This document shows, piece by piece, positions 13,966 to 28,884 of a DNA stretch of 64,000 nucleotides. The translations under genes were made by a program, and so were the position numbers. This DNA is from Nitrospirota bacterium (GTDB taxonomy: Bacteria > Nitrospirota > UBA9217). The stretch lies in the NCBI GenBank assembly GCA_963754875.1, contig CAVWHO010000002.1, positions 20,194 to 84,193 of the forward strand, given 5' to 3'. Numbering within the stretch: the stretch's first letter is position 1; each line of letters starts with the position of its first letter. Under the pieces are notes generated by a model. It was not told the DNA's origin, did not search any database, and worked only from the letters and a program-made list of their open reading frames with translations.

Positions 13966-14496
13966 TTACAGTTCTTTGAGCAATACTTCGGACAGGTCTT
14001 TACGTTTCGAAGCGTGTTTCTGTGACGCTGGGTGCCCCAGGGCAACGACAGCCATGAGTTCCAGCTCTTGCGGCAATCCGAGAAGATCCCGCACTCCCTC
14101 GGCATTCTTGAGAATTTCACCGAGCCAGACGGCGCCGAGACCGAGGGCATGGGCGGCGAGGAGCATGTTCTGGATGCAGGCGCCCATGGCCTGGTGGTCC
14201 TTAACGTCGTGGTACATCGCGCTTCTGTCCACAAACACGGCAATGCATGCGGCTGCACGCTCGATGATGAAATTATACTTTGTGTGCTTCGCCAGCTCGT
14301 TGCGGACTTCGGTGCTCCGCACGATAACGAACCGCCAGGGCTGGTTGTTCGTTCCTGAAGGCGCCCAGGTTCCGGCTTTGATGATCTCGATAAGCTGTTC
14401 ACGTGCGATTGGCTGGTCAGTGAACTGACGAATGCTGCGGCGGGTATAGATACCTTCTAACAAATCCATGGCAGTCATTATAGTGCTTTTAGCCAT
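13966..14496 (-). CDS. Nitroreductase family protein
   Basis: RRSIRQF, APSGTNNQPW, QNMLLAAHALGLGAVW. Confidence 0.93.
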   Translation of the reverse strand: MAKSTIMTAMDLLEGIYTRRSIRQFTDQPIAREQLIEIIKAGTWAPSGTNNQPWRFVIVRSTEVRNELAKHTKYNFIIERAAACIAVFVDRSAMYHDVKDHQAMGACIQNMLLAAHALGLGAVWLGEILKNAEGVRDLLGLPQELELMAVVALGHPASQKHASKRKDLSEVLLKEL

Positions 14497-14748
14497 TCAT
14501 TTCCACGATTATGGCGCATCGAGTTGATTCACAATAAATGTTATCCAATCACATTTTGAAAAGTATCCTTGACCCGTACCAGAGATCGTCTTTATTCATG
14601 TTTTCACTCTGCAGTCAACCGAATAAATTTATTATTATCTATCATGGAGATGACAAGTTAGTTTCTTCTATTTGCCTCCCACAAAGCTATTGCATGCTGG
14701 GCGAGAAGAAAAGTCAAGCCGTAAATGGGCGACACTAAGAGCCATGGA

Positions 14749-15456
14749 CTACAACACTTTGAACGATCCCAATACTTTCTCTATTTCCGCCTGTTCCCGT
14801 TCAAAGTTATCTTTAGGGATTGAAATCGCCACTCGATACATTGACTTTTCCTGCTGTACCAGCAATAAGTCGGTTCTCATCAAAACACCGTTTTTAGAAG
14901 TTTCTAGATAACCTCTTCTCTGATCCGTATTTTTGCCCTTTCCTTCAAAGACGTATGTCTTGGGAGGGTCGGCCTTCGCCCCAATCTGGATCAGATCTTT
15001 AACGAGGCTATCAACATCTTTCACCAATGCTTGCTTCATAACGACTATGGTAAAAGAAGTTTTTTGATCACTGTTTCTGTTCGTTGCGATAAGAGAAACG
15101 ACACTGCTCGAACTTGCATAGGTAAGTCCCTTGGGGATTAATATTTGATAGCCATCCGGAGATTTAAATAGCAGTTCGTCTGAAGCGATGGAACCGTTGC
15201 TTAATGCATTTGCCAGTTCATTGTTCGACGGAATTCTTTGCGCCGAAATTTGATGAAACCCTTTATATGTCTCGCTGCCTGCAAGCGCAAGGAAGATCAA
15301 GACAACGAGCAGGACCCACCATTTTCTGTGAAGTCTCAGCTGCCGTTTGTTGAAGTAATAAAAGAGGAATCCACCTGCAATGACTAAATAGACCGCGGCG
15401 TACACAAATATGGGCAGATAGGCTTTCACGAAATGTTTCCTCCTTGTGGCCTGCAA
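14749..15456 (-). CDS. Hypothetical membrane protein with two N-terminal TM helices; start uncertain
   Basis: 235-aa ORF, AT-richer than its neighbours, hydrophobic N-terminus. Confidence 0.65.
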   Translation of the reverse strand: MQATRRKHFVKAYLPIFVYAAVYLVIAGGFLFYYFNKRQLRLHRKWWVLLVVLIFLALAGSETYKGFHQISAQRIPSNNELANALSNGSIASDELLFKSPDGYQILIPKGLTYASSSSVVSLIATNRNSDQKTSFTIVVMKQALVKDVDSLVKDLIQIGAKADPPKTYVFEGKGKNTDQRRGYLETSKNGVLMRTDLLLVQQEKSMYRVAISIPKDNFEREQAEIEKVLGSFKVL

Positions 15457-15494
15457 TTCTTTCTCTAATATGATTCAGTGGAATTCCTAACTGA

Positions 15495-16436
15495 CTAATA
15501 CGGCGCCGTGAGCGACACTATCAAAGTTGCGCTCGCCGCCGTATTGCCCAGCTTCGCCGTGATCGTTGCCGTCCCGGCGATGTGTTGCGTGATCACGGTC
15601 ATCCCCTGTCCATTTACATTATAGGATCCGATCTTCGCAACCGTTGTGTCCGATGAGCTCCAGATCACCGACTGGGTAAGGTCCTCCACAGAGCCGTCAT
15701 TGAATGTTCCGGTGGCGGTAAAGAAGACACCTACCATTCTCGGGACGACGTCATCCTTCGGATTGACATCGAGTGACACGAGCGCCCTGCCTGATACGTT
15801 AATGATCGCCTCGTTCGAGGTAATGTTCCCCCATGACGCCGTAATGGCGGCGGTCCCGCCGCCTACGCCCGTAACCGTGCCTGAGTCAACGGTAGCACAA
15901 ACGTCATTGGAAGTGCTCCACGTCGCCATTGAGGTTATGTCCTGCGTAAAAGTCTCGCCGCCGTTGGTGAACGTCCCCATAGCGGTGAGAGCGGTCGTGA
16001 TTCCGCCGTCGACATCAGCGATGGCGGGAGAGACAGCGATGGCGGTCAACTGCGCGTTCTTTACGGTCAGAGCCGCGCTGCCTGACAAGCCTCCCGGCTC
16101 CGTTGCCGTGATGGTGCACGTATCGGGGCCGGCGACCTGGGCCGCCGTTGCCACACCCGATGCGGAGACGGCCACCATCGTGTCCGAGGAGGTCCAGTTT
16201 ACGAACGTGGTCATGTCCTGCGTGGAACCATCCGAATACACTCCGGTGGCCCGTAACTGCAGTTGAGTTCCTCCCGCCATCACGGGGGCAGGCGGCGTGA
16301 TCTGGATGGACACAAGATTGTCGAATCCGAATTGAGACACCCGGCAAGCGTTGACCGATGCCAGGCCTGCAAATACGGCCGTCGCTGCAAGTGTGAGCAC
16401 GATTGTGCGGACTTTTCTTTTTTGTGGCGCTTTCAT
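15495..16436 (-). CDS. Lipoprotein with three bacterial Ig-like (Big_2) repeats
   Basis: Lipobox-like VNAC; three repeats of ATGxYSDG...D.T..V.WxSS...VA. Confidence 0.88.
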   Translation of the reverse strand: MKAPQKRKVRTIVLTLAATAVFAGLASVNACRVSQFGFDNLVSIQITPPAPVMAGGTQLQLRATGVYSDGSTQDMTTFVNWTSSDTMVAVSASGVATAAQVAGPDTCTITATEPGGLSGSAALTVKNAQLTAIAVSPAIADVDGGITTALTAMGTFTNGGETFTQDITSMATWSTSNDVCATVDSGTVTGVGGGTAAITASWGNITSNEAIINVSGRALVSLDVNPKDDVVPRMVGVFFTATGTFNDGSVEDLTQSVIWSSSDTTVAKIGSYNVNGQGMTVITQHIAGTATITAKLGNTAASATLIVSLTAPY

Positions 16437-16497
16437 AATGTATATACCAGGTTAATCAAGTGAAATAATGCCGTGGGACGGCTGTCTCCGCGAGGGA

Positions 16498-17220
16498 TCA
16501 TCCTGCCGTTTCCGCATCGTTAGCCGGGGCCTGCACGATCTGTCCGTCCCGCATTTCAAGTATGCGATCTGCCTGCTTGGCCAGTTCCACGTTATGCGTG
16601 ACCATGAGTATGGTCACGCCGACTTCCGCGTTTATTCCCTCCAAGATCCGGACGATCTCCGTTGACCGCTTTGAATCGAGATTTCCCGTGGGTTCGTCGG
16701 CCAGCAATATTTCCGGGTTGTTTACCAGCGCCCGCGCGATCGCCACCCGCTGCATTTCACCTCCGGAAATCTGGCCGGGGAGATGGTCCTTGCGGTGATC
16801 GATCCCGAGCATCTTCAGATAACCGGAGACGTCCGTCCCGGCCCCTTCTTTGCGATAGAAGGTCAGAGGCAGCATGATATTTTCCAGCACAGTCAGGGTG
16901 GGGATAAGGTAGAAATTCTGAAAAATATAACCGAACGCCTCACGCCGGATTTCCGTAAGTTTTTTTTCGGACAGCCGGCGGCCTTCACTGCTGAAGATCG
17001 TGCGCCCACTAAGCTGCAATTCGCCCAACGAAGGGTTGTCGAGACAGCCGAGAAGGTTTACGAGGGTGGTCTTGCCGGAACCCGAGGGTCCGATGATGGA
17101 AACGAATTCCCCCTTCATAATCCGCAGCGATACATCGTGCACTGCGGGGATCGCCTCATTTCCTCGGTGATACACCTTGGTCAGGCTTATCGCTTCCAGA
17201 GAAACGTCTTGCCGTGTCAT
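16498..17220 (-). CDS. ABC transporter ATP-binding protein (LolD/MacB-like)
   Basis: GPSGSGKT, ISGGEMQRVAIARAL, LADEPTGNLD, VTH. Confidence 0.95.
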   Translation of the reverse strand: MTRQDVSLEAISLTKVYHRGNEAIPAVHDVSLRIMKGEFVSIIGPSGSGKTTLVNLLGCLDNPSLGELQLSGRTIFSSEGRRLSEKKLTEIRREAFGYIFQNFYLIPTLTVLENIMLPLTFYRKEGAGTDVSGYLKMLGIDHRKDHLPGQISGGEMQRVAIARALVNNPEILLADEPTGNLDSKRSTEIVRILEGINAEVGVTILMVTHNVELAKQADRILEMRDGQIVQAPANDAETAG

Positions 17221-18410
17221 CCTCCAACCTCGCTCCGTATCGCCTCAAGCGGCCTGATTCTACCCGCCTTCCAGGCAGGGTAAAGTCCGCTGAGGATCCC
17301 TATACCAAGGACTGTTCCCAGCGTCAGCAGCACCAGGCGCGCGTTGATCAGCACCAGCCCTCCATTCGGCGCGAACGTCAGCAGGTGGCGAAACAACAGC
17401 TCCGTGATCCCAGAAAGGAGCATCGCCAGGACCACACCGAGGATGCCTCCCGACGTGCAGATGAGCAGTGTCTCGATCCAAATGATCTGGAAGATGTCGC
17501 CCGGCATGGCGCCGATTGTCTTCAGAATGCCGATCTCCTGGAACCGTTCGTGGACCGACATCAAAATGGTGTTGACAACTCCGACCATTGCGATCAGGAT
17601 TGCGATGATTGCAATCGAAATAACCAGCACCTTGGCCGTGGAAACGAGCGACAGGATCGTTTGCTTTACTTCCGCCAGGCTTACCACCTGGACGCCAGGG
17701 AGCGAGTACAGCGCATTTTCGATCTTGTCGACGTCGGCGTCCTTCTGGATTTTTACCCCGATAGTCGTCAATTTATTCTGCTTATCGAATATTTTCTGGA
17801 GGGCGCCCAGCGGCACGAATGTCGTCCCGTCGTCCTGGGTGCCGGTCCTCTTCAGGATCCCAACCACCTTGAGCGCCACGTTTTTCTCGGGGATGAGGAT
17901 CATGTCCCCGACCTCCCGTTGCTCCAGCTCCGCAGCCTCGTATCCCATGACGGCTTCATAGGCTTGCGGATCCGTGAACCACCCTCCCTGGCGAAAGGTG
18001 AAATAGGTCTTCATCGCGCTATAGCTTTTCGGCTCGACGCCCCAGTACGCGGCGAGGCCCCCGTTTTGTCCCTTGTTCGGATCGAATACGGCTGCCATCA
18101 TCATCGGGGTGATCTGCGCCACGCCCGGTTCTTTTCTGACCGTCTCGCTGACAGACTGGTCGATATACTTCAGACCCGCGCCGCCCTTCAACATCATAGT
18201 GGCGGCCTCGTAAGGGCAGCCCTTGGCCATGACCAGCATTTGAAAGCCCATATTATTGATATCGTTGTTCAGCGCGGTCTCGAAACCGTTATTGAACCCT
18301 AGCAGACTCACCAGCACCCATGCCGAAATCGCAATGCCGACGACAGTCAGAAGACTGCGGACTTTCTTACGCAGCAGGTTCTTATAGGCCACCTGAAATT
18401 TCGTGATCAT
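17217..18410 (-). CDS. ABC transporter permease (MacB/FtsX type)
   Basis: RSLLT N-terminus, large periplasmic loop with KGCPYE, ERFQEIGILKTIGA, YPAWKA...PLEAIR. Confidence 0.93.
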   Translation of the reverse strand: MITKFQVAYKNLLRKKVRSLLTVVGIAISAWVLVSLLGFNNGFETALNNDINNMGFQMLVMAKGCPYEAATMMLKGGAGLKYIDQSVSETVRKEPGVAQITPMMMAAVFDPNKGQNGGLAAYWGVEPKSYSAMKTYFTFRQGGWFTDPQAYEAVMGYEAAELEQREVGDMILIPEKNVALKVVGILKRTGTQDDGTTFVPLGALQKIFDKQNKLTTIGVKIQKDADVDKIENALYSLPGVQVVSLAEVKQTILSLVSTAKVLVISIAIIAILIAMVGVVNTILMSVHERFQEIGILKTIGAMPGDIFQIIWIETLLICTSGGILGVVLAMLLSGITELLFRHLLTFAPNGGLVLINARLVLLTLGTVLGIGILSGLYPAWKAGRIRPLEAIRSEVGG

Positions 18411-19099
18411 CGTTGCACTGCTCCGTTCGACGGCGACTGCGCCGCATACACTAGTTCCTTCATCAGGACGAGGTTCTTCTTCGTTGCCCGCATGACTGCC
18501 CGGAAATCCGCTTCAGCCTTGGGCGCCGGATTCTTGATTTCCGCGATCCTGCCCGCCGCCTTTCCCGAGACGACGTCATACTCGTCGAAATCCTTGAGCG
18601 TGAGTCCTATGAACTGCTTTCCGAACGCGGCAGCGCGCAGTTTGCCCGCATATTGACTGGTCATTTTCTGGATGTAAAACGCTTTGATGCGCTCGTCGCG
18701 GTCGAGGGCGAGAAAAACCTGAATGCCGCCGTACTGACCTTTTTGGTTGACGCCGTGGATGTAGCCGATCTTCTTTTTGCCCCCGTAGATCTCGTACACC
18801 GTATAGGGGTTTTCGATTGTTTCGTACAGCCCATGAAAGGTGTCGCCCAGCTCCGCTTCGATTTTTTTGAGGAGCTTTTCTCCCCCCTGATCCACGATGT
18901 TCACGTAAAACGCCTTATACCCCGTCGACTCCGGGAAGATCCACGCCACATCGCGGTCGGGGTCGTTGAGCGAGCAACCGACCGCCCCCCAGGCCGAAAG
19001 AGCGCCCGCCAGCAAGGCGATGAGGCCCGTGGCAACGGCGATCAACGCGCGCAGCCGCAGTGCCGGGTATATTTGCGATCGCCGTCTAGCGGTCTGCAT
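18407..19099 (-). CDS. Exported protein with RnfG/FMN_bind-like fold
   Basis: Signal peptide; KGQYGGIQVFLALD...FGKQFIG...DVVSGK resembles the RnfG-like core. Confidence 0.55.
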   Translation of the reverse strand: MQTARRRSQIYPALRLRALIAVATGLIALLAGALSAWGAVGCSLNDPDRDVAWIFPESTGYKAFYVNIVDQGGEKLLKKIEAELGDTFHGLYETIENPYTVYEIYGGKKKIGYIHGVNQKGQYGGIQVFLALDRDERIKAFYIQKMTSQYAGKLRAAAFGKQFIGLTLKDFDEYDVVSGKAAGRIAEIKNPAPKAEADFRAVMRATKKNLVLMKELVYAAQSPSNGAVQR

Positions 19100-19138
19100 T
19101 GGTTTCGTTCTCCTTTCCTGCCGGCGAATCCGCGCAGG

Positions 19139-20194
19139 TTACAGGTGCAGCGGGCTGTAGTAATAGAGCTGCACCAAGAACCTGTTGTCGTTCAGAAGGC
19201 GATCGTAGGCATAGGACGTCCGCACCGTGAATTCCGGCGTAGCCTGGAAGCTGAAGCAGAGGGCCGGCCGCTGATCCAAATCTCCTGCGAATTTCCAATA
19301 CATGTCCTGTATTTCGAGCTTGTACCGCGCCTCCGGGTCCAGGTTTATGCCAAACCGGTAGAATAACGCGAAGAGGTCTTCCCCGAACCACTTGCCTGTG
19401 TACAGTTCGAAGCGATGTTCAAGGTTGTCTTGGAGAACCGTCAGATCGGTGCCCGCCAGCTGCATCTGGAGCGGCTCGTGTTCCATGAGTGTGTAGCCGG
19501 TCGTCTCCAGGGTCTTGCCATACCCCAGGGAAAATCCGGCGTTATAATTGTCCCGCTCCAGCACCCCGTAGGACACACGGGCCGCGGTCATATAATGGCT
19601 GTCGAACGGCAGTCCAGGAAGGCTTTGATAGAGCGGCATCCCCGTCCCGGAGGTCACGCTGGCCGCAATATTGCCCCAGGAATAATCTCGGTAGCCCCCG
19701 ATGCCCCAGTCACGATCATAAAAACCAAAGCGCATGCCGACCGTCTCAAGCAACAGACCGTGGCTATCGAAATAGGATGCAAGACCGAACGCGGGACGAT
19801 CATGGCCTACCCACACATAAGCCCACGGCGTTTTTACTTTCAGCCAGGCGTTGAATATCTGCGGCTGCAGGGTATAGCCATCCTGCTCCTTCGTGAACAG
19901 CTGCGGTTCTGTTCTGTAGCCCGCGCCCTGTTCAACCGGCATGACCGACATCCGGCCCTGGAGAGCAAAAACAGCGACGTCGCCGGTCTCGCCGGAAATT
20001 CGCTGCAGGTAATCGAACCCCAGACTCGGCTGCTGCATCTCTGATTGAGGATTGATCGAGTACGACACCGTTTTCCCGAGCGCGGACGAGTAGCCGAATA
20101 TGTCCTGCGCTTCGAAATAAAGGAGGTGGTCCGAGGCCCGCGCGCCTTGCGCCAAAAACAGAAGACATGCACAGCAGATGAGCGTCTTATACAT
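19139..20194 (-). CDS. Exported protein, putative outer-membrane beta-barrel
   Basis: Signal peptide ending ARA; aromatic/Gly-rich alternating strands; porin-like GHDRPAFGL and DRDWG; C-terminal FLVQLYYY. Confidence 0.65.
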   Translation of the reverse strand: MYKTLICCACLLFLAQGARASDHLLYFEAQDIFGYSSALGKTVSYSINPQSEMQQPSLGFDYLQRISGETGDVAVFALQGRMSVMPVEQGAGYRTEPQLFTKEQDGYTLQPQIFNAWLKVKTPWAYVWVGHDRPAFGLASYFDSHGLLLETVGMRFGFYDRDWGIGGYRDYSWGNIAASVTSGTGMPLYQSLPGLPFDSHYMTAARVSYGVLERDNYNAGFSLGYGKTLETTGYTLMEHEPLQMQLAGTDLTVLQDNLEHRFELYTGKWFGEDLFALFYRFGINLDPEARYKLEIQDMYWKFAGDLDQRPALCFSFQATPEFTVRTSYAYDRLLNDNRFLVQLYYYSPLHL

Positions 20195-20642
20195 CGAAGC
20201 GATAGCCGCCGCGGTAAATGACCTTGCTGTCCTTCACCATGGTAATCTTTATTTCCCAATCGCCGGGCATGGTAATACTGACCGGCGCGAGATAGTCTCC
20301 CTTCCTGGAGAGCTGGAAGGAATAATGGTCCGTCCCCATGGAAGGCATGGAGGGCATGCTGGAATCAGCCGTAATAGCGAGCGATCTGTCTTTTTCTCCT
20401 TTATTGTTGAACACCTGGATCTTCATAATGACCGATCCCATTTTTGGTTTCTCAACAAATCCGTAGATCATGTACCTGTCGTTTCCGATTAGGACTTTTT
20501 CCCCGGGACCGGGCATTGAAGCGAAAGTGGCCGCTTGCCGTGTTCCCGGCGTTTCAGGGCTGCCTGCGTAAAGAGACGGACCGGGAAGTAGTGCCAAGAA
20601 AAAAAAAGCAACGATGAAAAGGCGCCTTCTATGAAGCAACAT
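20187..20642 (-). CDS. YtkA/FixH-like exported protein with Met/His motif
   Basis: Signal peptide; SSMPSMPSMGTDH, KGDY, MPGDWEIKI. Confidence 0.75.
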   Translation of the reverse strand: MLLHRRRLFIVAFFFLALLPGPSLYAGSPETPGTRQAATFASMPGPGEKVLIGNDRYMIYGFVEKPKMGSVIMKIQVFNNKGEKDRSLAITADSSMPSMPSMGTDHYSFQLSRKGDYLAPVSITMPGDWEIKITMVKDSKVIYRGGYRFDV

Positions 20643-20701
20643 GATTTCCTCCTTCTTATTTATAAAAAATGCAGCTTCACTGCGCAAATTTTTCGTAGTG
20701 A

Positions 20702-20730
20702 ATGTTACTTCCGCTTATGAAAGTTGTCAA
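20702..20730 (-). promoter_or_regulatory. Sigma70-type promoter for the ytkA-like/ABC unit
   Basis: TTGACA-17 nt-TAACAT. Confidence 0.65.
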
Positions 20731-20875
20731 GGTTAATTGCATCTTCCTGCACGTTTGGATAATGCTTCTGTTACCAGGGCATTTCATTCGATCTGAGGCG
20801 CGAACGTGCAAGCTCGTGCAGCAATGGCACGAGTTATGCTAACTTTCCGGCGAAGTTTCTTATTCAAAAATAAGT

Positions 20876-20908
20876 AAAAAAAAGGGGAGCGGTTATACCG
20901 CCCCCCTT
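20876..20908 (-). terminator. Intrinsic terminator
   Basis: AAGGGGGGCGG-TATAA-CCGCTCCCCTT followed by a T-run on the minus strand. Confidence 0.85.
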
Positions 20909-20931
20909 GAAAGATGAAAATCTTACAGAAA

Positions 20932-22692
20932 CTAGTTTTTCTTGAAAAGAACACCGCAGGTAGCGCGGGTTGTAACATCGCCAGCAGCGACATGGCACTG
21001 CCCAGCGTTCGATCCGCAGGTCGGTGTTACGTTGCCAATGAACGCCTTGTTATTGATATCATAGAGCTGAACGCCGCTCGTCTTATACCCCGGCACGCCG
21101 GCTCCTCCGGCTTGCGCCTGGGTTTGGTCGGTATAGTACCGAAGGGACAGGATAGCGTATTTGCTGTCCGGGGTCGAAATAACGTCATGTACTTCAATGC
21201 CGCCGTACGTGCCCGCTCCCAGGCCGGTGGTGATGGCTCCGGGTTTCGAGACGGAGTTAGCATTGCTGGTGGTACCAGTGTTGGAATAGACGCTCAGGTC
21301 GCTGGCATTGAGGATGATCAAGCGGTCGGACCCGGATTGCAGAATATAATTGCCGTTAGGTGTAAAGGTGGCGCGATACGCAATCGTCCCCTGGAGCGAA
21401 CCGTCGCCGCTCGTGGTTGAATCGGACGGTGCGACAGTGACCGTTCCCGTCGATAGGACTTTCTCAGGTGTCATGGTGCTGATGCCGGGCGTCGAGGTGC
21501 TGGCTGATTCAAGATCGCTAGCATTGACCAGATACGTTCTGAGGAAACCGGCCAGGTTGTTCGTAGTGGAGAGGCCGCTAACGACGTTCATGACCATGTA
21601 AACCTTGCTTCCGTCGGGACTGGAACCGCCGTGAATGAACGCCAGCGGCGGCTGACCGTAGTTGCTGGGGGGATTAAGATTATCCATGGCGTGGTCGATC
21701 TGCCAGATGTACGTTCTGGTAAAGTCCGAGCCTCCGCTCGCAAGTACGTTGCTGACGCTGCCCTGTGCGCCGGCATTCAGTTTCGCCAGCGGAACAGCAT
21801 CGAGGTAGGCCGGGAAGCTCATCGACATGGGGAGATAATAGCCATTCGTCTTGTCCATTCCCGATGCGCAGTATTCAACGGCCGACGTGGTGCCGAACTC
21901 CTCAGGCGCCATGGCAGATAAGGCCCCGGCGATGTTTTGGCTGGCGCCATAGTCGATATCGATCACCGAGTTTATTCCATTGTTCGTCGCCGCAGTATTG
22001 GCCTGCGTCAAATCAACGTAGCCGATATCGGCAACTCCGCTAGAGTTGGGGTGGGAGGGGGAGGTGGGTACGGGCCTGGACATGATCGCGGAATAGTAAA
22101 TCTTCGTGGGGTTAGTCGCGTCGTCAAACCTTATGTCGTGGAAGACGGTTTTAGTACTAGACTGGCTGGGCGCGCCGTTAAGCTGAATCTTGGACGCACT
22201 TGCTGTGTTCACCGTGATAGGTGAAGTGGTATTCGTCGGGTCGATCGTTACTGAATATACGGCGATATGACCGCCATTCTGGGATGCCTGGTAGAGCGTG
22301 CCGGAAAGAACTGGAGCAGCCACTACCGTCATCGTGCGCGTCCCGGAGACGGACCCCGACGTTGCGGTGACCGTGACCGGCCCGGCAGCAACGGCTGTTG
22401 CGAGACCAGTGCTGGCGCCGATCGTCGCGATGGCCGTGCTCGACGTGGACCAGGTTATTACAGGCGACGTGGCGGTGCCGTCTGACATTAATGCCGTTGC
22501 GGTGAACTGCTGGGTATTGCCGACCGTAACGGTAGGGGCAGTAGCCGGGGCCACCGTTATCGAGGCCAGCGTTGCAGGGCCCGCCGGGGTACTGTCGCTG
22601 CTGCTGCTGCCGCACCCGAATAGCATCATCATACCAAGGACAAGGACGACCGATAAAGCAGTGAGAAAGGTCACTTTTGCTGACTTTTTCAT
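20932..22692 (-). CDS. Lipoprotein: Ig-like domain plus putative beta-propeller and C-terminal CX6CH
   Basis: Lipobox LFGC, Ser linker, Big_2 repeat; SPDGSKVY, TPNGNYI and TPDSKYA propeller-type turns; CGSNAGQCH near the C-terminus. Confidence 0.75.
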   Translation of the reverse strand: MKKSAKVTFLTALSVVLVLGMMMLFGCGSSSSDSTPAGPATLASITVAPATAPTVTVGNTQQFTATALMSDGTATSPVITWSTSSTAIATIGASTGLATAVAAGPVTVTATSGSVSGTRTMTVVAAPVLSGTLYQASQNGGHIAVYSVTIDPTNTTSPITVNTASASKIQLNGAPSQSSTKTVFHDIRFDDATNPTKIYYSAIMSRPVPTSPSHPNSSGVADIGYVDLTQANTAATNNGINSVIDIDYGASQNIAGALSAMAPEEFGTTSAVEYCASGMDKTNGYYLPMSMSFPAYLDAVPLAKLNAGAQGSVSNVLASGGSDFTRTYIWQIDHAMDNLNPPSNYGQPPLAFIHGGSSPDGSKVYMVMNVVSGLSTTNNLAGFLRTYLVNASDLESASTSTPGISTMTPEKVLSTGTVTVAPSDSTTSGDGSLQGTIAYRATFTPNGNYILQSGSDRLIILNASDLSVYSNTGTTSNANSVSKPGAITTGLGAGTYGGIEVHDVISTPDSKYAILSLRYYTDQTQAQAGGAGVPGYKTSGVQLYDINNKAFIGNVTPTCGSNAGQCHVAAGDVTTRATCGVLFKKN

Positions 22693-22868
22693 AACTTGCA
22701 TTCCTCCATAGTTAAAGTTATTAGGTCGTTTAGGAGACTTGACACGTTACCGGGCATTGCTTGTCTGCCATTTTGAATCTCTGGGTTCACCTCCTTTGAA
22801 TTTATCGATCATACTTCTACTTTTGTTTCGGAGAAAACCGGGCTGGTCATGATAAGTCTGACAATCAA

Positions 22869-23825
22869 TTAGTGGCCCCCCGCTCCATTGACAGGCAAGT
22901 AAATACTGCCCGTAATCCCTCCAATTGTTGCGGTGATTGTTGCATGACCCAGATAGACCGCTGTCACCACGCCTGAACTGTCTACGGTAGCAATATCAGG
23001 GTTCTCCGAATTCCACACAACCTGCGAGGTAATATCCAGAGTGGTAGTATTCTGGGTGGCGCTGTCATAGAACGTGCCGGTCGCGGTCAACTGGACAGGA
23101 GGTTGTCCTACCTTAACCGTAGACGCTGCCGTAACTGCGATCGACTGCAATACTCCCGAATTCAAAACAGTCAACGCAGCCGTGTTGGAAGTTACACCGT
23201 TCCATTGCGCGGTAATATCGGTTGCTCCCGGGGAAACGGCTGTTGCCAGGCCCGAGTGAGCGTCAATGGTAGCGACCAAGGTTGTTGAGGAACTCCAGGA
23301 AACCAGGCCTGTGATATCCTGGCTCGGAATTGTCTCGGTCCCGTCGCTGAAAAGTCCGGTTGCGGTGAACTGCTTAGTCAATCCGTTGTTTACGGATGCA
23401 GCGCCCGGAGATACCGTAATTGTCTGGAGGGTCAGGTTTTTGATGGTCAATTGCGTTGACCCGGTCATCCCCTGGCTGGTAGCGGTGATATTGCACGTTC
23501 CTGATGACGTGACGGCCGTGACAAGCCCGCTGGCAGATACGGTGGCGATCGATGAATCGGTTGTGCCCCAGGTAATCGATGCAGACAGATCGGTTGTCGT
23601 CAAATCGGTGTATTGACCGGTTGCTTTTAACTGCTGCACGGTCTGTGCCGCCATCGTGACGCTCCCTCCCACTGCCGTGCTATTGACTGGTGCTATCGAA
23701 ATAGAGGAAAGCTTCTTTCCTTCATAGGATGTAAGACCGCAGCCGTGAACCACAATTATGGTTATCATCAATGTTGAAAGCGCAAGAAGAACTGCAAGTA
23801 ATTTCTTGTCTTTGAATATCTTCAT
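22869..23825 (-). CDS. Lipoprotein with three Big_2 repeats (paralog of 15495..16436)
   Basis: VHGC lipobox; three ATG...D.T..V.W.S repeats. Confidence 0.88.
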   Translation of the reverse strand: MKIFKDKKLLAVLLALSTLMITIIVVHGCGLTSYEGKKLSSISIAPVNSTAVGGSVTMAAQTVQQLKATGQYTDLTTTDLSASITWGTTDSSIATVSASGLVTAVTSSGTCNITATSQGMTGSTQLTIKNLTLQTITVSPGAASVNNGLTKQFTATGLFSDGTETIPSQDITGLVSWSSSTTLVATIDAHSGLATAVSPGATDITAQWNGVTSNTAALTVLNSGVLQSIAVTAASTVKVGQPPVQLTATGTFYDSATQNTTTLDITSQVVWNSENPDIATVDSSGVVTAVYLGHATITATIGGITGSIYLPVNGAGGH

Positions 23826-23851
23826 TTTGGAATCCTCTCAATCGTAATGAT

Positions 23852-25045
23852 TTAAAATCTTGCCTGGAGCTGGAGCAACGTCGTATTGAAATCCTTGGAA
23901 GGCGGTTTGTTAAAGGCGATTTGTTCCAATTCAAGCGTAAGTCTCAGGTCCTGTCCTTTTATATAGTAGTTGAGCCCTTCCGCGTTCCAGTCTATGTGCT
24001 GATCAGCTACACCGTTTAGGCTCGCGAATGCCCATTTTTCCATACGCCCATAGACCTGCAATTTCCAGAGCATGTAGGCGCCCTTCCAGTAGTAGCCGTT
24101 TTTTTCTCCGTAGATATCCACGGCTCCGGGGGCTCCGCGCGTTCCTGCTCCGCCAAAGTCCTGCTTCAGATACGCGCCGGAGAGCGTAAACGTGCCGACC
24201 TCCGTCGGATACTCGAAGAACCCGTCGTAGGTATAAGCTTTATAGTCATCCTTGCCGCTGCCCACGCCGGTGGAGGTGTCGAAGGCCGAATAGACTGCGT
24301 TGGCCTCCGTTTCATACCCGGCGCCGAAGGTGAGCACTTTTTTCTTGCCGAGGTAGGACCCTTTGTAGCCCAGGTTGGATTCAGGATCGAGCAGGGTGAC
24401 ATGCACCCTGCCGGTATAGCGGTAGCCCGCGTTATCCGGTTTTTGATCGCCGTAGTTGTTGCCGTTCATCACGGCTGCCCGATATTGGAAAACATTATTG
24501 AAGAGATTGCCCCAGAACACAACACCGCTGTCGCGAGTCGTTTTGTCCCCATTGCCGAAGGGGCCGAGAATAAACGGAGAGCGGTCCATCGAAAGCGGAT
24601 CGAAGCAGCCGTCGTTCACTTCACGGGTCAGCTGTGTTTTTGTTTTTCCCGCGCGGATTTTGAATGCATCGGCATAGTCGGCGGTCAAGTAATAATCAAG
24701 CGCCGAGAGCGCATACTTGCTCGCTTCATCGGTTACAAACGTATCGCCGATTTTTCGTCCGCCGACGTACTCCAACTGCAGCGCGTATCCATAGGTTTCA
24801 TTTGCCATCCCCAGAAAGCTGAGACGATCTCTCATGAGGTAAAAATTATTTGTCGTTTTGTTGTCCCCATTCACATCGATGCTGCTCTGCGCCTCGCGGG
24901 CCTGCACCTGGTAATCAATGTCCAGAAAGCCCCCGTTGCCGAACTCGACCACGGTGTACGCTTTGGCATTTTGGCCACCCGGTCCAATCAAGAGAAATCC
25001 ACCAACCAGCACACCCAACATCAATCCTTTTAAGAAACGCCCCAT
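23852..25045 (-). CDS. extI: ExtI-like outer-membrane porin
   Basis: LTRE...C..PLSMDRS, TRDSGVVFWGNLF, HVTLLDPE..GYKGSYLGKK, GEKNGYY and terminal LQARF match, from memory, the Geobacter selenite/tellurite-operon porin ExtI. Confidence 0.75.
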   Translation of the reverse strand: MGRFLKGLMLGVLVGGFLLIGPGGQNAKAYTVVEFGNGGFLDIDYQVQAREAQSSIDVNGDNKTTNNFYLMRDRLSFLGMANETYGYALQLEYVGGRKIGDTFVTDEASKYALSALDYYLTADYADAFKIRAGKTKTQLTREVNDGCFDPLSMDRSPFILGPFGNGDKTTRDSGVVFWGNLFNNVFQYRAAVMNGNNYGDQKPDNAGYRYTGRVHVTLLDPESNLGYKGSYLGKKKVLTFGAGYETEANAVYSAFDTSTGVGSGKDDYKAYTYDGFFEYPTEVGTFTLSGAYLKQDFGGAGTRGAPGAVDIYGEKNGYYWKGAYMLWKLQVYGRMEKWAFASLNGVADQHIDWNAEGLNYYIKGQDLRLTLELEQIAFNKPPSKDFNTTLLQLQARF

Positions 25046-25107
25046 GTCTTCTCTCTCCTCCTTAAAGCCCTCCGCTAGGGATGTTAGATTTAAATTATTA
25101 TTCATAT

Positions 25108-25126
25108 TTCTGAAAGCGTTTCAGAA
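25108..25126. promoter_or_regulatory. Perfect inverted repeat (operator candidate) in the porin leader
   Basis: TTCTGAAA-GCG-TTTCAGAA. Confidence 0.45.
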
Positions 25127-25192
25127 CTTTTAGATCCGATGTCGTTTGATGCACGTAATTTCAATTTATTTAGCGGAGAATGAGTATGTTGC

Positions 25193-25220
25193 ATTATATA
25201 AAAGGATTAACTAATGTCAA
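25193..25220 (-). promoter_or_regulatory. Sigma70 promoter for the porin operon
   Basis: TTGACA-16 nt-TATAAT. Confidence 0.75.
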
Positions 25221-25608
25221 CGTGAAATTTTGTGCAGCTAGGATTCTAAAATTGAAGTTTTAGCTGTTCTGTGCAACTTTTCTTCACACTAGGGAACAAA
25301 ATATATAAAACCGCATTTTTTTTAGTTTGTTGCATAGTTTCACAACTTAATCATGATTACGAAGTCATCTCTTCACTTTGAAACGTAAAGGCTCACGCGG
25401 GAGCGTCTTTTTAACCTACTGATCCGCAAATTTCAATTGTGTCTTTGCCCATTGCTGGCGCTCATATCGTTTAAACGAGGATTTTGCCCGGCAATAATGA
25501 AACACGGACACTCCTCTTCATGCAACAGAAGCAATATTTTTTCTCTAAGACCGGTTTCTAATTTCTTTCTCTTGCATTTTTTCACTGGCTGTATTACCGT
25601 ACGGAACC

Positions 25609-27303
25609 ATGCATCTACAACACAGATTTGGATGGCATCGCTTCGTCATTCCCGGAATAATTTGCCTGATCGGCATTATCATTCCTCTCGCACAATACTA
25701 TTTCCGCAGGTTCGATGATAACACCTTTACCAGCTGGCACATGATTTTCAGTGCCACCTCTTCGTTCAATTATTTTTTTGTCTTTCTCGGCGGCGTCTTG
25801 TCGGCATTAATCCTGTTCAAGATTCGGTTGCCCTTACCGCGTGCTCTCTTCCTCTTTCTCGCATGCTTTGTCGCGGCCGCCTTTTTTTGGAGTATGCCTG
25901 AAGTAAACACCGTGAGCGCCCGCTACGTTACCCAGGCAAAATATCTCGAACTTTACGGAGTGCGTTATTTTTTCAAAGAATGGGGACACAGCATCCAGGC
26001 ATGGATGGACTTGCCCGCCATTCCCTTTCTAAACGGAATCATATTCGGGATCGTTGGAGAATCGAGAATCTATATTCAGATACTCACGGCTTTCCTCTTC
26101 GGGATGACCTCGGTCGTGACGTACCTGATCGGGAAATCGCTTTGGGATGAAGAAACCGGCTTTTATGCAGGCATTTTGCTGCTCGGAATTCCCTATCTCA
26201 TCATTCAGACGCCGCTTATGCTCCTTGACGTACATACGATGTTTTTCCTTACCCTGTCGATCTATCTTTATATCCGGGCACTGGAAGGAGGCCTTGCCCG
26301 GGCGATAGTTGCTGGGTGCTCCATCTTTGTGGCTTTTTTTTGCAAATACTCGGTTTGGCCGATGCTGTCCGTATTGCCGGTCATATCGTTTGTTTATTAT
26401 TTTCGTAAGGAAGGTCCCGCTCGCCCCGAGATCCTCCGGAGAAGCCTCCGGGTATTCCTGCTTACCCTCCTTCTTATCGGCGTACCCGTCCTACTCAAAT
26501 TCGATGTCATCGTCTATCAGATCAAACTCATGATGGAATTTCTGAGGCCAAGTCTCGGTCGGTGGACAGAGAAGTTCTCCTCAATCTATCTTTTCCAGAT
26601 CAGCCCCGCGATCACCATTGCTGCAGCTGCGTCAATCGTTCTGGCGGCAGCAAAACGGGACCTCAAATACCTGGTCGTGGTTTGGTTGCCGTTTCTCGCC
26701 GTCTTTTTTGAGATAAAGCGGGTCCGTTACATACTCCCCGTTTTCCCGATGCTGACGCTGATGGGGTCCTACGGACTCGCGGCGCTTCGAAGCCCTGAGC
26801 AGCGAAAGGCCGTCGTCACTGCTGCGGTTACTGCCTCGCTGGTGACCTGTTACTTTCTCTTTCTGCCTTTCCTTAATCAATGGAGCTTCGTCAACTTGAA
26901 ACATGCGGGGGAATTTCTGGATACTCTGGACGTCAATACGGTTGAGGCGATCGCGATTCCACAACAGCATTACCCCGTCAACCCGGCCGTTGCCGTGCCC
27001 CTCCTCGATCTCTATACGCACAAGAGGATCTCCTATGAGTATGTCCCCGGCGCTTCCACCCCCGATGAAGATTACCATACCTCGCGTTTCCGCGACAGTT
27101 GGGAGTACGTGAACCCTCCGTTCTATGCAGGCGATACTCGGACCGCGTCAGGAAAAACAGCCTTTGTAATAATAGCCGCGGACCCGCATGACAAGATTCC
27201 ACCCGAATTAAACCCTGCCATCAGCGCGATGCACCATGAGAAAGCATTTTCCACGAACATCCCTTTTTTTTACAATCAGACCCTCGTCACGATTTACTGG
27301 TAA
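25609..27303 (+). CDS. GT-C fold (ArnT/PMT-like) membrane glycosyltransferase, copy 1
   Basis: More than 10 TM helices; WMDLPA, TYLIGKSLW, LMLLDV, FCKYS, KRVRYILP. Confidence 0.85.
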   Translation: MHLQHRFGWHRFVIPGIICLIGIIIPLAQYYFRRFDDNTFTSWHMIFSATSSFNYFFVFLGGVLSALILFKIRLPLPRALFLFLACFVAAAFFWSMPEVNTVSARYVTQAKYLELYGVRYFFKEWGHSIQAWMDLPAIPFLNGIIFGIVGESRIYIQILTAFLFGMTSVVTYLIGKSLWDEETGFYAGILLLGIPYLIIQTPLMLLDVHTMFFLTLSIYLYIRALEGGLARAIVAGCSIFVAFFCKYSVWPMLSVLPVISFVYYFRKEGPARPEILRRSLRVFLLTLLLIGVPVLLKFDVIVYQIKLMMEFLRPSLGRWTEKFSSIYLFQISPAITIAAAASIVLAAAKRDLKYLVVVWLPFLAVFFEIKRVRYILPVFPMLTLMGSYGLAALRSPEQRKAVVTAAVTASLVTCYFLFLPFLNQWSFVNLKHAGEFLDTLDVNTVEAIAIPQQHYPVNPAVAVPLLDLYTHKRISYEYVPGASTPDEDYHTSRFRDSWEYVNPPFYAGDTRTASGKTAFVIIAADPHDKIPPELNPAISAMHHEKAFSTNIPFFYNQTLVTIYW

Positions 27304-27351
27304 TAATGGACTTAATTTCTTATAATATTAGAGCACAATGGAGAAGCGTGG

Positions 27352-28794
27352 ATGAGCCAGGGGAGTGATTGCAACGGAGCCGAAGACCGGATCGTCGTTC
27401 TGGGCGCGGGGCTTACCGGACTTTCCGCAGGATATGTCCTGTCCGCCGCCGGCCGCACGGTCGCTGTTTTCGAACATGATTCCGTTGTCGGCGGGATCTC
27501 GAAGACGATCGAACGGGGCGGGTTCCGGTTCGACCTGGGGCCCCACCGGTTCTTTACCAAGGATGCGCGCATAGAGGCCTTTGTGAAAGACCTGATGGGT
27601 GACGAACTGATGAAGGTCCCGCGCAAGACGGAGATCTTTATTCGCGGAAAGTATTTCAATTATCCGTTAGAACCCGTGAATGCCGTGTTCGGCATGGGCA
27701 TTTTTACGACGCTGCGGATCCTCGCAAACTACGGATGGGAGCGGTTCAAACGGCTCGTGCGGAAACCCGCGCCCGTGTCCCTCGAAGACTGGGTGGTCGC
27801 AAATTTCGGACGCACCCTGTTCAATATCTATTTCAAGGAATACAGCGAGAAGGTGTGGGGCGTCGATTGCAGCAGGATCAGCGCCGAGTGGGTCGCACGG
27901 CGCATCAGGGGGCTTTCGCTCTCCAAAGCGGTGATGAACGCGTTCTTCAAGTTCAAAGGCAGGGACATCCCGTCGCTCGTCAATCAGTTCCTGTACCCCC
28001 GGCGGGGGATCGGCCGTATCTCCGAAAAACTGAGCAGGAAAATCGAGCAAACAGGCTCGGTGTCCCTCAATACCTCCGTGGAACGCGTCAACCGCTCCGG
28101 TTTCACGATAGACAGCATCGCGGTCAAAGACCAAGAGGGCACCCGCATCATCGGCGGAAATGAATTCATCTCGAGCATCCCGGTCACGAAGCTGATCAGC
28201 CTGCTGGACCCGCCCGCGCCTCCGGACGTTCTCAAAGCGGCCGCAAGCCTCAAGTTCAGGGACATCGTTGTCGTTACCGTCATGGTCGACCGGCCGCACG
28301 TCACGAACCAGACATGGATCTATATTCCGGAAAAGAACATCCCCATCGGCAGAATCCACGAGCCGACAAACTGGAGCAGCGACATGGCGCCGGAGGGACA
28401 AACGCTCCTCGTGACGGAATTCTTCAGTTTTGAAGGAGACGCGATATGGAATACGAGCGACGCCGGTCTGATATCGATTGCAGTAGACAGCCTGGCCCGG
28501 CTCGGCTTCATCCAGCCCCGTGAAGTGATCGAAAGCGTGGTCACCAGGGTGCCGAAAGCCTACCCTTTGTTTGAGGTAGGATATCAGAAGCAGGTCGAGG
28601 TAATCGAAGACTATTTTTCCCGTTTCGCGAACCTCCACCTCGCGGGCAGGGTGGGAATGTTCAAATACTATAATATGGACCATGCAATCTGCTCGGGGAT
28701 GGGGGCCGCGGAAAAAATCCTCGCGGAAAGATCTAAAAACGGCCGCGGACAAGACTGCTCGGACGCAAAGGAAATCCTTAAATCCTGTTTGTAA
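27352..28794 (+). CDS. FAD-dependent oxidoreductase (UDP-galactopyranose mutase/HemY-like), copy 1
   Basis: GAGLTG, FDLGPHRFF, YSEKVWG, GRVGMFKYYNMDH. Confidence 0.85.
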   Translation: MSQGSDCNGAEDRIVVLGAGLTGLSAGYVLSAAGRTVAVFEHDSVVGGISKTIERGGFRFDLGPHRFFTKDARIEAFVKDLMGDELMKVPRKTEIFIRGKYFNYPLEPVNAVFGMGIFTTLRILANYGWERFKRLVRKPAPVSLEDWVVANFGRTLFNIYFKEYSEKVWGVDCSRISAEWVARRIRGLSLSKAVMNAFFKFKGRDIPSLVNQFLYPRRGIGRISEKLSRKIEQTGSVSLNTSVERVNRSGFTIDSIAVKDQEGTRIIGGNEFISSIPVTKLISLLDPPAPPDVLKAAASLKFRDIVVVTVMVDRPHVTNQTWIYIPEKNIPIGRIHEPTNWSSDMAPEGQTLLVTEFFSFEGDAIWNTSDAGLISIAVDSLARLGFIQPREVIESVVTRVPKAYPLFEVGYQKQVEVIEDYFSRFANLHLAGRVGMFKYYNMDHAICSGMGAAEKILAERSKNGRGQDCSDAKEILKSCL

Positions 28795-28884
28795 ACCAAG
28801 AGACAAGCCTTTCTTTCCGGGCGTTGCGTCTACGCAAAAATTGCACGGGATTTTGAATTTTTCTCCCGGAGATTGGTGCTTGTT

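Follow-up and report, generated by a model that had tools for sequence, protein, structure and literature searches.

A six-bladed propeller lipoprotein with a heme c motif and a predicted metal crown in a Nitrospirota locus with an ExtI-family porin and a MacB-type cassette

What might be made by a locus in which an outer-membrane porin, Ig-domain lipoproteins and a beta-propeller precede the genes of an ABC transporter, and do these genes form one system? The locus lies in a window (the whole stretch of DNA that was analysed) of 64,000 nucleotides from an uncultured Nitrospirota bacterium, and its features are listed in Table 1. An earlier reading from sequence alone, hereafter the sequence-only reading, had described nine co-directional genes in two promoter-led units, i.e. 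unit 1 with the porin, a lipoprotein and the propeller, and unit 2 from a YtkA-like protein to another Ig lipoprotein. This architecture was borne out: the ORF check placed nine ORFs, all on the minus strand, within 15495..25220, and the promoters and the terminator are conserved. Since the total number of promoter-like sites across the region is at chance level (15 vs 11.6 ± 3.7 in shuffles), the support for the two promoters comes from conservation, i.e. both hexamers of each are invariant in 4/4 aligned orthologous regions. At the position of the terminator, the orthologues keep a G-rich/C-rich hairpin that is followed by a T tail, and the gene order is the same in the window and in three other genomes. 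No RNA elements were found in an Rfam scan of 14000-26500.

Table 1. Coordinates of the features of the locus within the window
Feature	Position	Strand	Remarks
Promoter 1, TTGACA-16-TATAAT sigma-70 site	25193..25220	-	12/12 match
ExtI-family outer-membrane porin	23852..25045	-	start probably at 25045, longest ORF from 25105
Lipoprotein candidate, three Big_2 Ig-like domains, Cys29	22869..23825	-	PF02368 x3, lipobox-like Cys
Lipoprotein (Cys30), Big_2 (47-126) and six-bladed beta-propeller (128-589)	20932..22701	-	likely start 22692
Predicted metal crown H145, H188/D189, C278, M294, H357, R443, H505/D506, C582	20956..22269	-	
Expanded heme c motif C562-X6-C569-H570	20992..21018	-	loop preceding the last blade's inner strand
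Intrinsic terminator	20882..20908	-	12-bp stem and T tail; hairpin conserved in orthologues
Promoter 2, TTGACA-17-TAACAT	20702..20730	-	10/12 match
YtkA-like secreted protein, Met-rich patch	20187..20642	-	likely start 20642, ribosome-binding site
Secreted protein, putative beta-barrel	19139..20194	-	524 homologous clusters
RnfG/NqrC-fold protein, 230 aa, N-terminal Cys invariant	18407..19099	-	2895 clusters
MacB-type permease, periplasmic single-Cys motif GCPYE	17217..18410	-	PF12704 and PF02687
ABC ATPase, LolD/MacB type	16498..17220	-	PF00005
Second lipoprotein candidate with three Big_2 domains, Cys31	15495..16436	-	PF02368, three stretches

The first gene of unit 1 had been labelled an ExtI-like porin, and its product indeed passes the NCBIfam ExtI model NF040900 (360 bits, cut-off 150); a ribosome-binding site precedes 25045. 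The Ig-domain labels hold as well, with Big_2 counted three, one and three times across the three lipoprotein candidates, and the second three-domain candidate is kept at the equivalent place in the loci L031, L032 and L035. ExtI and the Ig lipoproteins were found solely beside the lipoprotein branch of the propeller family. None of extH, extJ and extKLMNOPQS is among the nine genes.

The third product had been described as a propeller lipoprotein, in agreement with its single Big_2 domain and with the AlphaFold model, which shows six four-stranded blades (pLDDT 91.9, pTM 0.93); the likely start at 22692 follows from a ribosome-binding site, and the signal is lipobox-like. Pfam and NCBIfam give no family for this protein, and 56 aligned members of its family searched against profiles returned scattered generic propeller matches, with at most three members per family. 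Solved structures offer no close relative, the best fold matches being six-bladed YWTD propellers, which are metal-free; Foldseek and VIA-align gave generic propellers, with TcDH not among the matches listed, and the ESM Atlas clusters are unnamed or YncE/lactonase-like. The family was not found described in a full-text literature search, most subscription papers being outside its reach. No selenocysteine variant is among the motif matches listed, and the propeller gene ends with TAG. The family is widespread in sulfur-cycling Nitrospirota and occurs in about a fifth of the sampled Nitrospirota genomes, often in several versions per genome.

The sequence-only reading had seen no cytochromes in the window, which is probably wrong, since the propeller ends with a c-type heme motif whose C, C and H are invariant in 94/94 aligned homologues (these counts, like those of neighbour genes at 81 loci, include kin and hence are not independent). 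The spacing of the motif varies, with the canonical CXXCH (X2) in 65 of the 94, X6 in 19, X4 in six and X3, X5, X8 and X10 in one each, and in the tree of propellers the CX6CH forms nest inside a CXXCH lipoprotein clade. The host genome has cytochrome c synthase (PF01578) at three loci and many multiheme genes. With a C-x(n)-CH motif in an exported protein and cytochrome c maturation in the host, the propeller is, judging by its sequence, most likely a c-type cytochrome; from the precedent of extended motifs, we infer that CX6CH may serve for heme attachment.

Six His/Cys motifs of the propeller had been singled out as spaced sites. All of them are present and conserved in 92-94/94 homologues, but TCG is not a blade ligand because its C562 is the first Cys of the heme motif. 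In the AlphaFold model, His188, Cys278, His357, Arg443, His505 and Cys582 each start the inner strand of one blade, i.e. they occupy equivalent blade positions, with their convergence judged from blade register and not from interatomic distances. Each crown residue is found in 92-94/94 homologues, except D506 (90/94). Two distant subfamilies retain GGH, a Met, CXXCH and a crown of either H,C,C,H,H,C or D,C,C,H,H,C.

Our preferred reading, to which we give an even chance, is that the protein is a lipid-anchored six-bladed propeller with covalent heme c and a His4/Cys2/Met site, likely for copper, acting as an extracytoplasmic redox enzyme on small sulfur compounds. It might instead be no catalyst, i.e. 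a protein that captures, buffers or redox-conditions copper or another soft metal, with the heme keeping surface or periplasmic metal in the reduced state and the MacB cassette taking it for uptake, delivery or detoxification. We regard this as unlikely, albeit less so than the other alternatives discussed below: the near-invariant R443, R521, S280 and D189 are non-ligand residues and suggest a substrate pocket, and single genomes can carry three propeller subfamilies that differ in crown, which suggests different substrates.

The two units had also been taken to form one system, and this part of the sequence-only reading was not upheld. The usual partner of the propeller family is a MacB-type permease with an invariant C118-C119 (19/19), whereas unit 2 is independent of the propeller and widespread alone, which rules out one fixed nine-gene system; nine loci with unit 2 and without a propeller were examined. 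Within 5 kb of the propeller, the Cys-Cys permease was present at 78 of 94 loci and the GCPYE type at six, never both, and neither was present at the remaining ten, such as L033, where ExtI, Ig3 and the propeller are found and unit 2 is absent. On sequence comparison, unit 2 thus represents a cassette of its own that stands in for the Cys-Cys permease in two propeller clades.

Reciprocally, 80 metagenome loci of the permease had a propeller directly upstream in 58 cases, another gene in three and missing upstream DNA in 19, counts that are partly circular because the permeases used to make the profile were themselves neighbours of propellers and, in one case, of TcDH. Among the 65 loci of the permease's own family, 53 follow a heme propeller and four follow TcDH; the sole Pseudomonadota match of the profile (1/401) follows TcDH as well, in this case with a permease without the Cys-Cys pair. 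That TcDH, an enzyme, is served by the same permease family argues against a mere metal-capture protein.

The independence of unit 2 raises the question of whether the units are unrelated altogether, with unit 1 encoding surface Ig lipoproteins for adhesion or structure, in which Cys would serve for disulfides only. Separate promoters, the terminator and the occurrence of unit 2 alone would all agree with this, as would the top fold matches, which are binding propellers. Adhesion or structure would not account for the invariant C-x-CH and His crown, nor for a gene order kept across four genomes, and the GCPYE-type permease also occurs with a second, separate propeller clade, never alongside the Cys-Cys type; we therefore consider unrelated units very improbable.

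Within unit 2, the labels of the MacB-type permease and the ATPase were confirmed by their Pfam matches, and the GCPYE motif is retained in related cassettes. The YtkA label stands less firmly, as the protein here falls under the PF13115 cut-off (E 7.5e-4, 20.5 of 25.9), but an orthologue is at the cut-off. The putative barrel protein was without a match in Pfam, NCBIfam and PDB searches, and most of its homologues end in a C-terminal YYYxP[IL]. As for the RnfG-like label, the fold stood, with Foldseek TM values of 0.50-0.60 to RnfG/NqrC (RnfG at E 5e-6, TM 0.56) and a weak FMN_bind lead in the ESM Atlas, while Pfam and NCBIfam gave no family. The implied function did not stand: GCxLN is found in 120/120 homologues, but the [ST]GA[ST] flavinylation motif is found in only 3/120 and is absent here, so that the protein is not an RnfG-type flavin electron carrier and flavin electron transfer through it was ruled out.

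Further evidence comes from the neighbour genes. PCuAC or NosL lies within 5 kb of the propeller at 40/81 loci (PCuAC 27, NosL 16) and neither does at 41/81; these copper chaperones are the commonest companions of the propeller, upstream and downstream in separate clades. A NosZ-like metallo-propeller with its own cofactor-loading machinery, as envisaged by the sequence-only reading, fits these data, and the chaperones and the permease shared with TcDH point to copper. The chaperones would also suit a metal-capture protein, as would the heavy-metal genes near unit 2 alone at several loci, i.e. cation-efflux-like, P-type ATPase-like and MerR-like genes recognized by eye from ORF starts.

Sulfur-handling genes or an ExtI-type porin flank 31/81 loci (DsrF-like 19, ExtKL polysulfide reductase 8, ExtI 8), and the host genome contains dsrA, with ExtKL on another contig; a search of the host genome for nosZ found none. 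These neighbours would also agree with a propeller without copper, in which C582 or C278 would be both distal heme ligand and sulfur carrier, in the manner of sulfur cytochromes with His/Cys-ligated heme, and the Cys-bearing MacB permease would move sulfane sulfur or thiol redox equivalents. There is precedent for a Cys-ligated heme in MccSep (excerpts of PMC13510729), and in Treponema a Cys-Cys permease stands among cysteine-metabolism and cysteine-synthesis genes, where the annotation shows no propeller gene in the vicinity. One heme would not, however, need the four His and the Met that are conserved besides the heme His, and the commonest companions remain copper chaperones, which leaves a copper-free sulfur carrier distinctly unlikely.

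How the preferred heme-copper enzyme may be assembled can be outlined in five steps. After Sec export, the cytochrome c synthases of the host would probably put heme on CX6CH. The six blade-start residues together with H145 and M294 would, on the predicted structure, very probably bind a metal next to the heme, where the channel opens. This metal would somewhat more plausibly be copper than any other, handed on from a YtkA/PCuAC/NosL-type chaperone by way of the Cys that the MacB permease exposes to the periplasm, at the expense of ATP; NosDFY performs the ATP-driven copper handover for NosZ. It is fairly likely that, in this clade, the YtkA/barrel/RnfG-fold/GCPYE cassette would substitute for the usual Cys-Cys permease. 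Tentatively, the Ig stalk could, together with the Ig lipoproteins and the ExtI porin, provide outer-membrane placement and a passage for a substrate or product that is an anionic sulfur (or selenium) compound. The built-in heme of the propeller would stand in for the separate cytochrome that TcDH requires.

It is tempting to speculate, although we find it doubtful, that the family represents a new class of metalloenzyme, i.e. a single six-bladed propeller combining heme c with a Cys/His-ligated copper or copper-sulfur cluster, displayed at the surface via ExtI, loaded by thiol-bearing MacB machines as a second general route beside NosDFY (TcDH included) and performing, outside the cytoplasm, a step that is still missing from the oxidation, reduction or disproportionation of sulfur. 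To our knowledge, few copper propeller enzymes have been found (NosZ, TcDH), each with new cluster chemistry. A propeller with a predicted heme and metal site is a target for unexplained periplasmic sulfur steps in abundant subsurface Nitrospirota, and from the permease that they share, a function that can be tested follows for the uncharacterised ABC genes of TcDH clusters, possibly also for those of clade III nosZ. Moreover, the window offers a natural cassette swap (Cys-Cys vs GCPYE), and the spacing of the heme motif forms a natural series from X2 to X10.

Among known systems, TcDH (PDB 5OEX, 5F75, 8Q9X) is likewise a periplasmic beta-propeller in which His residues stand where blades begin, and has downstream a MacB-type permease of the same family as the usual partner of the propeller family; in the window, the GCPYE type takes its place. 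The family profile matches TcDH over two blades (E 0.002-0.01), no more strongly than it matches hydrazine synthase beta or Apaf-1 repeats, and the TcDH residues aligned to R443 and H505 are presumably its blade His. There is no full-length homology to TcDH, for which a genuine member encoded by the same genome reaches E 2e-131. TcDH is a seven-bladed protein with three Cu that is exported by Tat and passes electrons to a separate cytochrome (parts of PMC9456337 and PMC5328954), and its cluster holds four downstream ABC subunits and copper genes (PMC5328954, in part), whereas the propeller is predicted to have six blades, carries a Sec/lipoprotein signal and combines two Cys in the crown with a heme motif of its own.

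NosZ resembles the proposed protein in a His-ligated metal site at the propeller centre and in being loaded with the help of a chaperone and an ABC transporter, and it is among the Foldseek matches to the model (TM 0.41-0.46). Unlike NosZ, the propeller has six and not seven blades, four conserved His rather than seven, a heme motif and, by Pfam and the model, no cupredoxin CuA domain, ending seven residues after C582. In clade III nosZ clusters, a MacB-type transporter replaces NosDFY (excerpts of PMC13685413). NosD was not found in the labelled neighbourhoods of the propeller.

MccA holds a Cys-bound Cu(I) adjacent to a heme. The heme c-copper sulfite reductase MccA/SirA has an atypical extended CXnCH heme motif (PMC6976685, in part), a feature shared with the propeller, but MccA is an octaheme protein of different fold and the propeller a predicted monoheme one. 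RnfG/NqrC flavinylated FMN-binding proteins share their fold with the unit 2 protein, which has an invariant Cys in place of the flavinylation motif. Lastly, the porin passes the ExtI cut-off and thus recalls the Geobacter extHIJKLMNOPQS cluster (ExtI porin, ExtH, ExtKL/MccSep); unlike in that cluster, there are no ExtH, ExtJ, multiheme, Rieske or cytochrome b genes in the unit, and the porin is accompanied by Ig lipoproteins and the propeller.

All nine co-directional genes were found as minus-strand ORFs where the sequence-only reading had placed them, and the two promoter-led units with a terminator held as well: the ORFs fall into groups of 3 and 6, set apart by a strong terminator and two promoters of the sigma-70 type, and the hexamers of both promoters are invariant in all four orthologous regions aligned. 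The porin is a true member of the ExtI family (on ExtI as such, see PMC5877670), Big_2 domains are present in all three candidate Ig lipoproteins, and the permease and ATPase of unit 2 are both of the MacB type. The nearest named relatives are Nitrospirota MAGs (69-88 % identity). The host genome carries dsrA, ExtKL, tRNA-Sec and three cytochrome c synthase loci; nosZ was not found in this 90 % complete genome. A membrane protein gene 3' of the cluster (Table), with a homologue directly behind the propeller in loci L033 and L075, may belong to the unit, and the divergent genes on the other side, kept beside ExtI in L031, L032, L033, L035 and L085, possibly serve surface glycosylation.

Propeller residues 128-589 match no family in Pfam or NCBIfam, and searches returned 40 and 66 homologues. 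Within the phylum, 86 of the 401 genomes sampled gave a match to the propeller profile, weak matches to distant subfamilies included, and three large families gave none (0/76, 0/40 and 0/28 genomes); a second profile matched 8/351 genomes of the phylum of G401 (record title Desulfobacterales), and relatives also occur in Anaeromyxobacter, Rokuibacteriota and Betaproteobacteria records. We aligned 94 full-length, non-permuted sequences; fragments, forms with permuted or tandem propellers and a number of near-duplicates were excluded. The His/Cys sites singled out earlier proved conserved in 92-94 of these. In the alignment H145, D189, S280, H505, R521, C562, C569 and H570 are invariant, while H188, C278, M294, H357 and R443 each occur in 93 sequences and C582 in 92; the remaining His and Met residues show no conservation in this alignment. 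The C-terminal motif reads CXXCH in 65 propellers (four with two CXXCH each), CX6CH, the form borne by the propeller of the window, in 19, CX4CH in 6, with other spacings in 4. Since the extended forms are nested within a CXXCH-bearing lipoprotein clade of the FastTree tree, and CXXCH is the majority form, the motif is most simply read as a c-type heme site with a grown loop. MccA/SirA offers a precedent for extended CXnCH motifs (PMC6976685, in excerpt).

The AlphaFold2 model (pLDDT 91.9, pTM 0.93) shows six blades with four strands each, and the last strand closes the propeller. Among its fold matches, YWTD propellers with six blades come out best (Z 23.5, rmsd 2.8 Å, 258 aligned residues, 13 % identity), and no match in the structure search stands out as a relative. 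The crown residues H188, C278, H357, R443, H505 and C582 lie one per blade, each first in the inner strand, and judging from this blade register they would converge; with standard propeller topology the loops that carry H145, M294 and the heme motif presumably lie on the same face as these residues. Two distant subfamilies build the design on other crowns: one, known from 28 sequences and present twice in the host, has H,C,C,H,H,C, and the other, of five sequences, has D,C,C,H,H,C. Both retain GGH, a Met in blade 2, CXXCH and the xCG at the end. The family also includes propellers that are circularly permuted, arranged in tandem or of a two-heme form.

Coordinates of features in the window, the host genome (G000) and compared loci (L) or proteins (P)
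Feature	Location	Strand	Remarks
TcDH homologue (E 2e-131 to PDB 8Q9X)	G000:C20:106630-108167 (L122:3631-5168)		two overlapping ORFs
Heme propeller, distant subfamily (H,C,C,H,H,C)	G000:C16:170844-171953	-	surrounded by regulator genes of CRP/FNR-like type (identified by eye)
Heme propeller, distant subfamily (H,C,C,H,H,C)	G000:C21:18508-19881	+	Cys-Cys permease behind
ExtKL/MccSep-like pentaheme gene	G000:C13:139974-140909	-	second ORF behind, as expected for selenoprotein
Cluster similar to yeeE-tusA-dsrEFH type II (YTD)	G000:C7:103376-105773	-	labels partly by eye
Membrane protein gene	window 14749-15456	-	low GC (43 %), weak PsbP match
Glycosyltransferase-like, FAD oxidoreductase-like, radical-SAM-like genes	window 25609-30324	+	divergent
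Two-heme propellers	L039:9388-10614; L049:9412-10683; L169:8560-9771		second CXXCH inserted behind first
Circularly permuted and tandem double propellers	L070:8922-11177; P0040; P0042; P0049; P0065		own CXXCH per unit; fibronectin type III stalks in some
DUF4418, Cys-Cys MacB permease, ATPase (Treponema saccharophilum)	L258:4774-6844		amid cysteine/methionine genes

The propeller is regularly accompanied by a MacB-type permease. Of the 96 unique loci found by the propeller (ORF including the heme motif), 94 extend 1.5 kb or more in the downstream direction; a permease of one family, with a periplasmic Cys-Cys invariant in 19/19 aligned, lies within 5 kb in 78 of the 94 and directly adjoins in 73. 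The single-Cys GCPYE type occurs at 6/94 and neither type at 10/94. That the two exclude each other (together at 0/94 loci) suggests that they share one job. Conversely, among 80 metagenome loci found from the Cys-Cys permease, the propeller stands immediately upstream in 58; in 19 the DNA on that side is too short, and three carry something else there. In the window's own family the permease is present in 53/64 genomes, and in 65 of the 78 matches listed it follows a heme propeller 53 times, TcDH four times and neither in eight (three at contig ends). The one Pseudomonadota match in 401 genomes lies behind TcDH and lacks the Cys-Cys. These permease-based counts are partly circular, as the genes that went into the profile lie beside propellers or, in one case, beside TcDH. 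The Treponema locus (Table) shows that the permease family extends beyond propeller loci. The TcDH homologue of the host has a Cys-Cys MacB permease and an ATPase behind it, then a further two permeases and a gene of the YtkA-like type; its split is possibly an assembly error, and TcDH is whole (~520 aa) in four related genomes. TcDH may be a new finding for Nitrospirota that carry dsrA.

The RnfG-like protein of unit 2 has the RnfG/NqrC fold but lacks the flavinylation motif and carries an invariant Cys; it has 2895 homologous clusters, yet occurs in only 13/401 Nitrospirota genomes. The cassette lacks a propeller in nine fetched loci and is therefore modular. Co-occurrence of the two units elsewhere was partly upheld, the cassette lying behind the propeller in L031, L032 and L035 but missing in L033 and L075. 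That the units are unrelated neighbours seems highly improbable. A GCPYE-type permease also accompanies a separate two-heme propeller clade, adjoining two of its three members (L049, L169).

Companion genes, their seeds named from Pfam or NCBIfam, were counted at 81 propeller loci with long flanks: PCuAC at 27, NosL at 16 and either at 40; DsrF-like at 19, FtrD-like at 12-13, ExtKL and ExtI at 8 each, and DUF4418 at 5. The DsrF-like label is suggested by synteny with a DsrE match and by excerpts on DsrEFH type II (PMC13293266). Genomes related to the host have one in-frame TGA in the ExtKL/MccSep-like gene. ExtI reportedly takes part in positioning ExtH, a lipoprotein. It lies near 10 propeller loci; a strict lipobox pattern was matched at four of these, several of the rest being fragments, and at 0/84 of the loci lacking ExtI.

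Excerpts describe TcDH as a seven-bladed tri-copper propeller whose electron acceptor is a separate monoheme cytochrome (PMC9456337), and place downstream of it four ABC subunits with a proposed part in copper acquisition (PMC5328954). NosDFY carries Cu(I) from NosL to NosZ, and clade III nosZ clusters contain a transporter of the MacB type in its stead (PMC13685413). With these systems in view, the most parsimonious reading, which we hold to be evenly poised, is that the propeller may be a heme c-copper enzyme, into which a thiol-bearing MacB machine would load copper and which would act on a small sulfur anion. The chaperones would also suit a copper capture protein, which we consider unlikely. 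Two observations speak against the copper step: the Treponema Cys-Cys permease has cysteine genes around it and no annotated propeller in its vicinity, and half of the propeller loci lack a neighbouring chaperone. A sulfur relay through a Cys-ligated heme, free of copper, we find less likely still.

No description of the propeller family was found in a full-text literature search, nor is it shown in the available excerpts of PMC13510729, PMC12998232, PMC6504805 and PMC11033732. Membership in TcDH, NosZ and the ext operon fails in each case. The propeller system nevertheless probably resembles TcDH and NosZ by analogy in its mode of working, and it differs from TcDH in having six predicted blades and a built-in heme motif, in contrast to seven blades and a separate monoheme cytochrome.
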